Shown: positions 1 to 4,399, numbered from the stretch's first letter. The stretch is 4,399 nucleotides of DNA from a virus (IMGVR_UViG_2690316321_000003), one strand, 5' to 3'. Notes: generated from the sequence alone by a model not told the origin. Numbers and translations are program-made.

Positions 1-155
1 TTAATCCCGTTCAGAGCATCACTGCCGGGAACGTTCGTCCGGGCATGAAGATACCCCGCGCTCAGCGTGGCCTGCTGCTCAGACGCCCATGCAGGCGCAC
101 CGGATACGGCCAGACAGATGGCTGCGGACAACATGGCTGCACAAACTTTACGCAT
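1..155 (-). CDS. lom: Lom/Ail/PagC-family outer-membrane protein, N-terminal fragment (3' end lies beyond window start)
   Basis: Minus-strand ATG at 153..155 preceded by GAGAGG (complement of 161..166) with 5-nt spacing. Translation to the window edge: MRKVCAAMLSAAICLAVSGAPAWASEQQATLSAGYLHARTNVPGSDALNGI. This has a signal-peptide shape (basic N-terminus, hydrophobic core, AWA-S cleavage-like site) and the early mature SAGY motif resembles the T/S-V-G-Y start of lambda Lom/Ail/PagC. Position directly downstream of J matches lambda gene order. Not in the ORF track because it is truncated by the window edge. Confidence 0.6.
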   Translation of the reverse strand, partial: MRKVCAAMLSAAICLAVSGAPAWASEQQATLSAGYLHARTNVPGSDALNGI

Positions 156-176
156 AATTACCTCTCGCTTTTCTGC

Positions 177-204
177 AATAAAAAAGGCGCCATTTCTGGC
201 GCCC
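177..204 (-). terminator. Rho-independent terminator downstream of J
   Basis: Minus strand reads GGCGCCA-GAAA-TGGCGCC followed by TTTTTTATT: a 7-bp perfect GC-rich stem, 4-nt loop and U-tract, beginning about 20 nt after the J stop codon (223..225). On the plus strand the hairpin is followed by CGTATATGGG, not a T-tract, so it is oriented for minus-strand transcription. Confidence 0.55.
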
Positions 205-222
205 GTATATGGGTTATAAAAT

Positions 223-939
223 TCAGCTAATCGTGATACCTGCGGTGGATTTCTTCATCACCACAACAAGCAAATCGCTGATACTGGTTGTCGGTGTCCA
301 GTTATTGACCATTGAAGAAGAGACCGTAAACTTTAACGTCAACGTTCCCTGCCCCGCAGGCATATCAATAACGGAAGAAAAAACCGCCGGAGCATCCGTT
401 GTTGACTGGTTAAAAATTTCTGTCCCGTTTTTCGTTACCTGCAAACGGCATACAGAATAAACATAAGACTGTTGATTATTACTGCCATAATTTTCCTTCC
501 TGCTTCCTTTAAACAGCAGAGCCGGGATCATGACCTGTCGGTCAAACTTCTGATCATCACTAATCGTGACCGTAATGGTGCCGCTGGCATAAGTGCTCGT
601 GCGGGGGAAAGACTTGCTGACCGTTTTGACAATATCGCCTTCAATCTGGTTGGCGGACAGTTTCCCCTTAATCTGACAGTTCTCATTTATCGTGACGTTG
701 TTGAGCGTCCCTGAGTTCGCATTCACACTGCCACTGATATCCGCATTTTTAGCGGTCAGCTTTCCGTCTGATGTCAGGGAAAATGCAGGAGGATTGCCAC
801 CACTGGTAATTGTGGGAGCAATAAGGGTCTTAATCAGCGCTTCATTGATAAACGTCTGTCCCCCCTGCGTGACCAGTGCTGGAGTGGTGTTACCGTTCTC
901 CGGATTAATGAACGCAATCCTGTCTGCCGCCAGCAGCAC
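223..939 (-). CDS. J: Tail-tip host-specificity protein J, C-terminal receptor-binding portion (238 codons; in frame with and 6 nt downstream of the TAG ending the 992-aa J ORF)
   Basis: Track ORF begins at a GTG. Its product (..[26 protein letters not shown]...[44 protein letters not shown]...FDRQ...IDMPAGQG...VMKK...GI..) aligns with the C-terminal about 240 aa of lambda gpJ as I recall it (..[26 protein letters not shown]...[44 protein letters not shown]...). Same reading frame as 946..3924. No convincing Shine-Dalgarno upstream of the GTG, so independent initiation looks unlikely. Confidence 0.8.
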
Positions 940-945
940 CTGACT

Positions 946-3924
946 CTACATACCGTCAGGGGTATTCTCAATACCGGCACCGATACCCGCAATGTAAAGG
1001 CGACCATCCTGCATCTGCTGCAGTTTCACGGCCCACATACTGTTCAGGTTATTACTGGTGTCTGTCTGAACCTTTTGTATCTGCTGGATTGTTGCTTCCT
1101 GCTCGCCCAGTTTTTTGTCTGTCGTCGAGATGATTTCACTGCTTTTTTCATCCACATACTGACGAACCTGCGCAATCTGGCGTGCATTCTCCTCATTACT
1201 CTGACTGACCGTTTGCGTGATTTCGCTACTGACGTTGTCCACTTTCTGACTCACCTGGGATATGGCCAGTGACTGCTCATCATTTTTTTTAGCAACCAGC
1301 TGCGTGAGGCTGTTTTCAGTTTCCCCGATTTTTTGGGTCACCCCGGCAATATCACTCTCCAGTCGCTGATTGACCTCATCCTCCAGTTGCTCAACTTCAC
1401 TGCGCAATGCAGAGGCATTAATACGATCATTCAGCTCCTGCCCCAGCAGGGTGCTGTTTATTTTCCCTTCAAAAAAATTGAGATACTCTTCAGGATTATT
1501 ACCCGGCTGGCCGACAGCCTCCGCGAATGCCGATTTGCCAACGGTATTCACACTGCGAACATAAAAGTAATAATCATGGCCCGGCTTAATATTCTGGCCG
1601 GAGGCTACCCAGTACAGTGCCGTACCAAGATAGCGGGCAGATTTGTCCACCTGTGAGACATCTGAAATCTTCGTTTCAGAAAACCAGAACTCAAACTGTA
1701 CCGTCGGATCATAAACCGCAAGATGCGGCGTGGCGGTTATCTGAAAATAGCCCGGCGTCAGCTCAATCTGTGACGGCGCTGCCGGTGCGGCAATCCGGAA
1801 CGATACCGACGCCGGATCGCCCTGCTGTCCCCACGCATTTACCGCCCGGACTGTCAGCGTGTAACGCCCCAGCGCCAGTTGCCTGAAGCGGTATGTGGTT
1901 TCCGTCGTCCGGGCCGTGCTGACCAGCCGCTCACTGCCGTCATCCGCTGCCACGGTCAGGCGAAGAAGGAAGCTCACGCCCTTCACCACCTTCGGCGTGT
2001 CCCAGCGCGCCAGCACCTGATATTCCCCGCTGTCTGCGGTGACTTCGGCGGTCAGGTGCTGCACCGCTGGCGGCGTGACACCATTCACCGTGCCGCTCTG
2101 GTCGCCGTCAAAGTGCGCCCCGTTATCCACGATGGCCTCTTTTTCCGGTACATGCTGCACGGCAGTGATGGCATACGTGCCGTCGTCGTTCTCACGGATA
2201 CTCACGCAGCGGAACAGGCGCTGGCGCAGCGTCGGCAGCTTCAGCCCCCACACGCTGTACTCGGCAACGCCGTCAGGAACACGGCTCACTTTCACCTTCA
2301 CGCCGTCGGTGACGGACTGAACCTCCACGCTGACCGGATTCCCCTGCCCGTCAACCAGGCTTATCAGCGTGGTACCGGAGGATGGCAGCGTGATTTCACG
2401 GTCGAGCGTCAGCGTCCGGGTCTGGCTGTTCACCGCCAGCACGCGACCACCGGTGCTGATACCGGCATAGTCATCATCACAGATTTCAATGACATCGCCC
2501 GGTACATGGCGAAGCCCTTCTGCGCCCACGCTGAAATCCACGGTCTGCGTTTCCAGCAGTTCTGTTTTAATCAGCCACAGCCCGGCGCGGTGTGCCTGCC
2601 CCCGGCTGGTACAGCCAAAAGCATCCATCTTCGTGACGTTACGACCGTAACGGGCAATGGCCTGCGTATCCTCCACAAGCTCTGTCGCCGTCTCCCAGCC
2701 GTTGTTCGGGTCAATCCAGTTCACCTCAACGGCATTATGGCGGTCTTTCAGGGCGCTGAAGCTGTAGCGGAACGGCGCGCCATCATCCGGCATAACCACA
2801 TTACTGCGGTTATAGGTCCACACCTTATCCGACGCTCGGTCCTGCACGAACGTCAGCGTCTGCCCGTTCCATACCGGCATACAGCGCATCGCCGAGCAGA
2901 AATCACTGAGCACATCCCACGCCTTGCGCTGTGTGGTCAGGTACGCATTACAGGTGATGCGCGGCTCCGTGCCGCCAAAGCCGTCCGGCACTGACTGGTC
3001 GCAGTACTGGCCGATGACATACAGCGCCCATTTATCCACATCCGCCGCACCAAGACGTTTCCCCATGCCGTAGCGCGGATGGGTAAGCATATCCCACAGA
3101 CACCAGGCCATGTTGTTGCTGTATGCCGGTTTTAACGTTCCGTCCCAGATACCGCTGTATTGTCGCGTCTGCGGGTTATAGTTCGACGGCACCTGCAGAA
3201 TGCGCCCGCGAAGATGATAATTACGGCTCACCTGCTGGCTGCCGAACTGCTCCGAATCCACCTGTACGCCGACCAGTGCCGTGTTCGGGTAGCACTGTTT
3301 CACATCGATGATTTCGGTGTATGACGACCAGAGCGTTTTGTTCTGCAGCTGGTCTGTGGTGCTGTCCGGCGTCATCCTGCGCATCCGGATATTGAACGGG
3401 CGCGGCGGCAGGTTACCCACCACCACCGATGCCAGATACTGTGAGGTGGTTTTGCCTTTAATGGTGATGTCTTTTTCCGTCACCCAGCCACCGTTACGTT
3501 GTATCTGAACCAGCAGGCGGACTTCCGATGGATTCCTGTCCCCCTTTGAGGTGGTTTCCACCAGTGCCTGCACACCGAAGGTAAAACGCAGTCGGTCAAT
3601 GTTTGCCGACGTGATGGTCCGGGTGATCGGCGTGTCGTATTTCACTTCCGTACCCAGCACCGTCTCGGAGCCGGAGGATTCAAATCCCTCCGGCGGTGTC
3701 TGCTCCTGCTCACCGGCCCGGAACACCACCGTGACGCCGGAGATATTGGTATTCCCCTCACTGTCCAGCACCGGCGTACTGTTCAGCAGCACGCTTTTTA
3801 AGCCATCCACCGGACCTTCAACCGGCCCTTCACTGATGGCATCGATCACACTCAGCAACTGCGTGGATTTCAGGTTGTCCTTCGCTTCGCGCGGGGTATG
3901 CCCCTTACTGCTGCCTTTACCCAT
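946..3924 (-). CDS. J: Tail-tip host-specificity protein J (lambda gpJ-like central tail fiber), N-terminal 992 aa, ending at an in-frame TAG
   Basis: ATG at 3922..3924 with GGAG (complement of 3933..3936) 8 nt upstream. The N-terminus [34 protein letters not shown]... and roughly the first 830 residues match lambda gpJ nearly residue-for-residue from memory (e.g. ..[93 protein letters not shown]..). The ORF ends ..[14 protein letters not shown] then TAG at 946..948, where lambda has ..EGKLSQF.. continuing in frame. Confidence 0.95.
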
Positions 3925-3946
3925 TCCTCACGCTCCATAAACGACA

Positions 3947-3966
3947 AAACCGCCCGCAGGCGGTTT
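3947..3966. other. Perfect palindrome / stem-loop in the I-J intergenic spacer
   Basis: Plus strand AAACCGCC-CGCA-GGCGGTTT (8-bp perfect stem, 4-nt loop). On the minus strand it is followed by TGTCGTTTATGGAGCGTGAGGA-ATG, i.e. directly upstream of the J ribosome-binding site. Could be an attenuating or terminator-like hairpin, an RNA processing or stability element, or a protein-binding site. Confidence 0.3.
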
Positions 3967-3984
3967 CACATAAAACATTTTGCA

Positions 3985-4399
3985 TCAGCGACCAATCACC
4001 ACAACCTGACCACCATCCTCTTCGTCTGCCGTGCTGATCTCCTGAGAAACCACGCGTGACCCCACGCGCATTTCACCGAACAGAACAGGCAAAATATTGC
4101 CCTGGGCAACCATGTTATCCAGTGAGGAGAAATAGGTGTTCTGTTTGCCGTTATCCGTTGTCTGCGTTCGGGGGGTTTGGGGTTTAGGAGCCAGCATCTG
4201 TGCAACACCACCAAGCGTCATCGCTGCCCCCATAGAAAAGAGAATGTCACTGAAAGCGATACTGATTCCCGGCATCCAGATTGCCGTAGCAATCAGCGCC
4301 GCACCCAGCACTACCTGAAAAACACCGCCACTTTTGGCTCCCGCAAGACGCGGAACGATGTGGATCACTGCACCATTTGCCAGCGGCTCATTAAGACGG
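3985..4399 (-). CDS. I: Tail assembly protein I (lambda gpI-like), C-terminal 138 codons; 5' end lies beyond the window end
   Basis: Minus-strand frame is open from the window edge to TGA at 3985..3987. Translation ..RLNEPLANGAVIHIVPRLAGAKSGGVFQVVLGAA...MLAPKPQTPRTQTTDNGKQNTYFSSLDNMVAQGNILPVLFGEMRVGSRVVSQEISTADEEDGGQVVVIGR matches the C-terminus of lambda gpI from memory (..AVIHIVPRVAGAKSGGVFQIVLGAA...QTTDNGKQNTYFSSLDNMVAQGNVLPVLYGEMRVGSRVVSQEISTADEGDGGQVVVIGR). The track ORF 3985..4368 is only the part after an internal GTG. Confidence 0.9.
   Translation of the reverse strand, partial: RLNEPLANGAVIHIVPRLAGAKSGGVFQVVLGAALIATAIWMPGISIAFSDILFSMGAAMTLGGVAQMLAPKPQTPRTQTTDNGKQNTYFSSLDNMVAQGNILPVLFGEMRVGSRVVSQEISTADEEDGGQVVVIGR

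Follow-up and report, generated by a model that had tools for sequence, protein, structure and literature searches.

An amber codon private to one contig interrupts the tail fibre gene J of a lambdoid prophage in Escherichia coli 200499

The lambda-type tip attachment and central tail fibre gene J on a short prophage contig from E. coli 200499 is interrupted by a single in-frame amber codon at codon 993, which lies in front of the receptor-binding domain and has replaced the glutamine codon found in its relatives. A recent inactivating mutation in the prophage J is, in our assessment, the probable cause. The locus belongs to a well-known gene family and is an ordinary case of a nonsense pseudogene or, with lower probability, of a base-call error; it calls for no new mechanism.

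Results

The contig carries the end of I, the whole of J and the start of lom

The DNA analysed here (the window) is the complete contig CYGJ01000030.1, of 4399 bp, from the draft assembly GCA_001286605.1 of the clinical isolate E. coli 200499; E. coli 200499 (prefix CYGJ01) is also listed as the source strain of retron Eco8 (PMC8934634). All genes of the contig, J included, lie on the minus strand, a detail that supplements the preliminary description of this DNA. Read along that strand, the contig begins with the 3' part of the tail assembly protein gene I (3985..4399, minus strand), which is open to the contig end and was assigned by comparing its translation with the orthologue at locus L001, called 'tail assembly protein' by RefSeq. 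Gene J follows (223..3924, minus strand), with 1233 codons and a TGA at 225..223. Between the J stop codon and lom lies a GC-rich hairpin with a T run (185..204, minus strand), a terminator-like element proposed from a consensus scan only. The contig then ends within the 5' part (51 codons; 1..155, minus strand) of an Ail/Lom-family outer-membrane protein gene, recognized by Pfam (PF06316, E=1.2e-22) and by the annotation of its orthologue. This I-J-lom order matches that of lambda and of NZ_CP027550, the closest complete genome, and the order in full, K-I-J-lom-stf, is present both in lambda and at the orthologous locus L001. The contig is a piece of a lambdoid prophage of E. coli 200499. An antisense ORF of 371 aa (1879..2994, plus strand) was considered as a further gene and dismissed as a codon-aligned antisense artefact.

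A single amber codon divides one J reading frame

Translation of the minus strand from 3924 to 223 yields one frame of 1233 codons whose sole internal stop is codon 993, an amber TAG (946..948, minus strand). The DNA around the stop reads GGT ATG TAG AGT CAG GTG, with the TAG at 948..946. The two parts of the gene appear in the ORF list as an ORF of 992 aa starting from an ATG (946..3924, minus strand) and an ORF of 238 aa starting from a GTG (223..939, minus strand); the latter is simply the J frame restarted at GTG 939, after two sense codons. ORF list, translation and DNA all agree with the preliminary description, in which the 992-aa and 238-aa ORFs shared a frame and were split by a TAG plus two sense codons. 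Besides the TAG, the contig contains no further defect: the partial I and lom genes run to the contig ends without a stop, and J has no other one. The deposited annotation lists the pieces as separate proteins, CUA13556.1 and CUA13553.1.

The stop falls within the tail-tip fibre domain

Alignment with lambda J gives 945 identical residues among 1127 aligned (84%); the identity is 91% up to the stop and 56% beyond it. The lambda residue opposite the TAG is Leu892, in the motif EEGKLSQF. An end-to-end alignment with lambda gpJ, with the TAG opposite the Leu of EGKLSQF, had been described before and is reproduced here. In the intact allele P0004, the families FNIII-A_GpJ, Phage-tail_3, Ig_J, Ig_J_second, Phage_Tail_Tip and Ig_GpJ_C score above the curated Pfam cut-offs, and the same six families are divided between the two ORFs of the window. 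The gpJ chain of PDB 8iyk (chain J) is matched with E=0 and 2102 bits, and the J orthologue of NZ_CP027550 is annotated as an intact gpJ gene of 3702 nt.

Lambda gpJ is built from hub domains, a pair of FNIII domains, an alpha-helical shaft (approximately residues 809-861), a beta-prism central straight fibre and a receptor-binding domain (PMC11101478); residues 1-807 correspond to the resolved tail-tip complex (PMC12617516). As Leu892 is located just past the alpha-helical shaft, truncation to 992 aa would leave the hub and the shaft in place and remove nearly all of the straight fibre together with the receptor-binding domain. In the Pfam assignment, PF09327 (the tail-tip fibre domain) spans residues 945-1073 and PF12421 (the receptor-binding domain) residues 1110-1233, so that the stop lies inside PF09327, at approximately profile position 47-52 of 139, and 117 codons upstream of the receptor-binding domain. 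The 992-aa product (949..3924, minus strand) comprises the hub domains, the FNIII/Ig domains and a long alpha-helical shaft, followed by the tail-tip fibre domain up to about its position 47. The untranslated remainder (223..945, minus strand), of 240 codons plus the TGA, contains the rest of the central straight fibre (PF09327 positions 52-138) and the C-terminal receptor-binding domain (PF12421). PDB 9e7m, with its J chain of 835 residues, was considered as proof that a truncated J can assemble and was rejected; it is an Ur-lambda tail tip for which only the proximal part of J was deposited, and is uninformative on this point.

The lost C-terminus resembles that of an OmpC-using gpJ

The C-terminus lost from the window protein is identical at 146 of 168 residues (87%) to the prophage-derived part of A8 gpJ (PDB 9wca), and the receptor-binding domain at 103 of 125 (82%). 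A8 gpJ is a chimera of lambda gpJ with the C-terminus of a natural E. coli prophage, and uses OmpC, not LamB, as its receptor (PMC11338833). Given an identity of ~85% between the lost C-terminus and this OmpC-using gpJ, the receptor of the ancestral protein was probably OmpC and not LamB. The preliminary description had stated that the receptor-binding region is lost, and that this region carries LamB binding in lambda; the loss is borne out by the position of PF12421 downstream of the stop, while the attribution to LamB has to be given up, as the closest protein is the OmpC-using A8 gpJ.

The stop is derived and found in no other sequence examined

The closest complete genome, NZ_CP027550, is 97.9% identical to the window over the whole contig and has CAG (Gln) at codon 993, where the window has TAG. 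In seven more complete genomes, the 57-mer at this site matches at 56 of 57 bases, with the sole mismatch at 948 and a G there in every case; G is thus present at this position in 8 of the 8 nearest complete genomes. By comparison with these relatives, the change at codon 993 is a single C>T transition at the first codon position (G948A on the plus strand). A TTG-to-TAG change had been suggested earlier, and is replaced by this transition since the nearest intact relatives carry CAG.

The exact 57-mer with TAG was absent from 5,426 complete E. coli genomes and from 50,697 phage records. The flanking 38-mer, with N at the variable base, was also scanned against metagenome, IMG/VR and GTDB-representative contigs, where it matched 20 contigs from metagenomes, 47 from IMG/VR and, among the GTDB species representatives, one (Escherichia ruysiae). 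Counting these matches together with L001, the variable base is C in 69 of 69 independent loci. Whether close homologues share the stop had been raised as a check on its origin, and the outcome was negative (0 of 5,426 genomes and 0 of 69 loci). At the protein level, an exact look-up among ~15 billion proteins returned the 992-aa and 238-aa products each from one contig, CYGJ01000030.1. The intact 1233-aa allele P0004 is present on 143 contigs and is identical to the window at all residues after codon 993. Over positions 32..1220, the window differs by 2-3 bases from each of four near-identical alleles, and position 948 is the sole site at which it departs from all four. These sequence comparisons indicate that the stop is private, derived and very recent, or else not real.

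A real mutation is favoured over a consensus error

The locus displays the features of a nonsense pseudogene, namely a single premature stop one base away from the sense codon of its orthologues, and a derived, strain-specific allele. Three points favour a real mutation. Independent disruptions are frequent in this J lineage; one of its members, the orthologue in E2348/69, whose 57-mer at the site differs from the window only at 948, is annotated as a 'frameshifted' pseudogene (RefSeq E2348C_RS28990). Frame breaks are present in ~5 of the ~48 loci that cover most of J (L023, L049, L051, L065 and L069), some of which may be assembly errors. Morphogenesis defects are also frequent in E. coli lambdoid prophages, where they can be complemented in trans (PMC2669165). 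The decaying or defective prophage listed as one option in the preliminary description is the best supported of its explanations, given a private, derived single-base change on a near-intact background. The 4.4 kb hold no second sign of decay, the other frames all being open, so the word 'decaying' rests on one base.

Alternatively, the genome may have CAG at codon 993 and an intact J, the A at 948 being a wrong consensus base introduced in sequencing, assembly or polishing. The TAG allele is confined to one contig of one draft assembly, and apart from this one transition its background nearly matches that of intact alleles. The region is also prone to artefacts, since the contig is short (4.4 kb), comes from a short-read draft assembly and carries a gene of a multi-copy family; the median number of places with J-like sequence in an E. 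coli genome is 3, and the contig ends within the flanking lom and I, as expected of an assembly broken at repeats. However, real disruptions affect roughly one in ten loci of this J lineage, and since the collapse of a repeat gives the majority base, some copy would still have to carry the TAG. The low per-base rate of consensus substitution errors in Illumina assemblies, few of which would create a stop, likewise counts against an error. We keep the earlier option of a sequencing or assembly error, to which a short contig of a draft assembly is open, as a lesser and unlikely alternative to a mutation; the base is probably real in the genome.

Suppression of the stop or a two-part J is highly unlikely

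Two readings would leave the gene functional as it stands, and we judge them highly unlikely even when taken together. In the first, full-length J is made conditionally, the amber being read by a suppressor tRNA of the host or of a co-resident prophage, or by a near-cognate tRNA-Gln, so that adsorption depends on suppressor status. The ancestral residue at codon 993 is Gln, and a supE-type suppressor or a near-cognate tRNA-Gln inserts Gln at an amber codon, which would restore that residue. The base 3' of the TAG is A, and in work by Bossi from 1983 an A after an amber codon is said to be a favourable context for suppression. Lambda carries Leu at the TAG column, which implies that the position tolerates substitution. 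Against this reading, the stop is conserved in no relative (5,426 genomes, 69 loci, the phage records and the 8 nearest genomes), and thus bears no sign of selection for it. A tRNA scan of the 4.4-kb contig found no tRNA gene, no Rfam element matched the contig at E<=1, and the 111 nt around and after the stop fold no better than shuffled sequences (z=+0.50). Because the working form of J is a trimer (PMC11101478), three full-length chains would seldom be expected to come together under low-level readthrough. The single in-frame TAG in 1233 codons is, moreover, not that of a recoded genome. The option of a J made full-length only by amber suppression or readthrough, put forward in the preliminary description, is accordingly very improbable with an unshared stop, no tRNA or RNA element on the contig and no folding signal. 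A more specific version is scarcely credible: a real amber partly read as Gln, through a supE-like allele, a prophage suppressor elsewhere or near-cognate tRNA-Gln in the UAG-A context, would give infectious OmpC-targeting particles at a low, host-dependent rate. If true, the partly read amber would make this a natural conditional-lethal 'Jam' prophage, its spread gated by host translational fidelity.

In the second reading, which we find barely tenable, J works in two parts: a 992-aa hub and shaft protein would assemble non-covalently with a separately initiated 238-aa fibre and receptor-binding protein. A GTG lies two codons past the stop, 6 nt downstream, where termination-reinitiation is possible, and both pieces carry gene calls in the deposited assembly. 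The predicted anti-SD duplex at GTG 939 is nevertheless weak, at -3.2 kcal/mol compared with -9.8 at the J ATG and -7.2 at lom, and the break is inside one Pfam domain (PF09327 positions 47/52 of 139), whose lambda counterpart is a continuous trimeric beta-prism fibre (PMC11101478). None of the relatives examined has a two-part arrangement. A promoter search near the site gave one match (971..943, 9/12), which is at chance level, 3 having been found against 3.0 expected. Separate initiation of the downstream ORF, which had been named earlier as a finding that would change the interpretation, is thus argued against by the weak Shine-Dalgarno at GTG 939 and the break within a domain. Two further candidates were rejected: a programmed or conserved stop, as every relative examined has CAG, and a recoded code 15 genome with TAG=Gln, as there is one in-frame TAG in J and none in the partial I and lom, and J ends in TGA.

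Discussion

In the preferred explanation, a recent inactivating mutation, a C>T transition in J would have converted Gln codon 993 from CAG to amber TAG, and translation from the normal J start would end after 992 residues. The truncated product is predicted to retain the tail-tip hub in full, along with the FNIII/Ig domains and the shaft, while the C-terminal receptor-binding domain and almost the entire beta-prism central fibre would be missing. It would then be non-functional for adsorption, and a prophage relying on this J alone would at best make tails unable to bind the outer-membrane receptor, probably OmpC, or to trigger DNA ejection. Such a step would be a first-hit inactivating mutation, of the kind that makes prophages defective.

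The significance of the observation extends little beyond annotation, and no new biological question is opened by it. The two deposited proteins, CUA13556.1 and CUA13553.1, represent fragments of a single J gene, and the record calls for a pseudogene annotation or, should the base prove wrong, for a correction. A real mutation would offer a first step of prophage inactivation that is both clean and datable, since it consists of one base on a nearly identical intact background. Transfer of the prophage would in that case depend on the tail-tip proteins of co-resident lambdoid prophages, as in the O157 prophage pool.

The arrangement can be set beside several known systems. In code 15 phages, TAG is read as Gln, in-frame TAGs are many and a suppressor tRNA is encoded. 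The window resembles them in that its TAG occupies a Gln position in a gene for a late structural protein, but differs in that its J has one TAG in 1233 codons, its relatives have CAG and the contig has no tRNA. The classical lambda J amber (Jam) mutants are conditional-lethal, laboratory-selected and propagated on suppressor hosts. They, too, have one nonsense codon in J, of the CAG>TAG type, open to rescue by a Gln-inserting amber suppressor, whereas the allele described here would be a spontaneous one in the prophage of a wild clinical isolate, on a contig without a suppressor tRNA. With lambda gpJ itself (UniProt P03749; PDB 8iyk, 8xcg and 8xcj), the window shares the Pfam domain series and the I-J-lom order; its J has ~100 extra residues in the alpha-helical shaft and is interrupted at the position aligned to lambda Leu892. 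A8 gpJ (PDB 9wca/9wcb) is an engineered, functional fusion, while in the window the homologous domain sits 3' of a stop codon; OmpC use is established for A8 gpJ and, for the window allele, is suggested by homology. A further parallel is provided by defective lambdoid prophages of pathogenic E. coli. The lesion in E2348/69 is a frameshift and that in the window a nonsense substitution found in no other strain, but in both, as in the prophage pool of O157 Sakai (PMC2669165), a morphogenesis gene is inactivated by a small lesion.

Mosaic structure and shaft length of J

The base composition of J (3924..223, minus strand) changes along its length, with a G+C content of 0.56-0.64 in the part encoding the hub and FNIII domains (window 1600-4000) and a lower value of 0.44-0.51 in the part encoding the shaft, fibre and receptor-binding region (window 200-1600). 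Divergence from the nearest genome, NZ_CP027550, is also uneven; it reaches approximately 3% across window 1500-3900, while only two base differences are found in window 223-1220. Taken together, the step in G+C content and the uneven divergence show J to be a recombinational mosaic.

Alignment with lambda J shows that the encoded protein, at 1233 aa against 1132 aa in lambda, carries its surplus of around 100 residues as a single block in the alpha-helical shaft, immediately upstream of the amber stop at codon 993 (window ~1105-1410, J codons ~838-940). Among loci that share the 38-mer flanking this codon, three length classes occur, in which the site is preceded by 993, 938 or 920 codons; shaft length is thus variable within this J lineage.

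Disrupted J genes in related loci

The orthologous gpJ gene of the reference EPEC strain E2348/69 (NC_011601.1 1078256-1081970) is annotated as a frameshifted pseudogene; this is a separate, independent inactivation in the same J lineage as the window. Apparent frame changes inside J were also seen by tblastn in five loci of this lineage from IMG/VR and metagenomes (L049, L051, L065, L069 and L023, the last with a coverage of 1x), and these are either real frameshifts or assembly errors.

Flanking and overlapping features

A strong terminator-like hairpin of eight pairs, six of them GC, followed by a T run, lies on the minus strand at 185-204, between the stop codon of J and the start of lom, as expected for a lom moron boundary. 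At both ends of the contig (window 12-31 and 4313-4369), mismatches to the nearest genome are concentrated, with five in the first 31 bases and six in the last 90; this pattern fits contig ends that extend into repeats of lom and the tail assembly gene I whose copies have diverged. Retron Eco8 is listed for E. coli 200499, the source strain of assembly CYGJ01 (PMC8934634), and has no relation to the J stop.

A 371-aa open reading frame on the plus strand (1879-2994) is antisense to J codons 311-682 in the codon-aligned frame. It is bracketed by TTA/CTA/TCA codons of J at 311 and 718, with none between, and was rejected as a gene, being a codon-usage artefact.

Comparison of the receptor-binding end with A8 gpJ

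The C-terminal ~168 codons of J (window 226-730) have 82-87% identity to the OmpC-using A8 gpJ (PDB 9wca), a chimera of lambda gpJ with the C-terminus of an E. coli prophage. Several of the A8 substitutions are present at the matching receptor-binding domain positions of P0010, a sister allele in the same 90% cluster.
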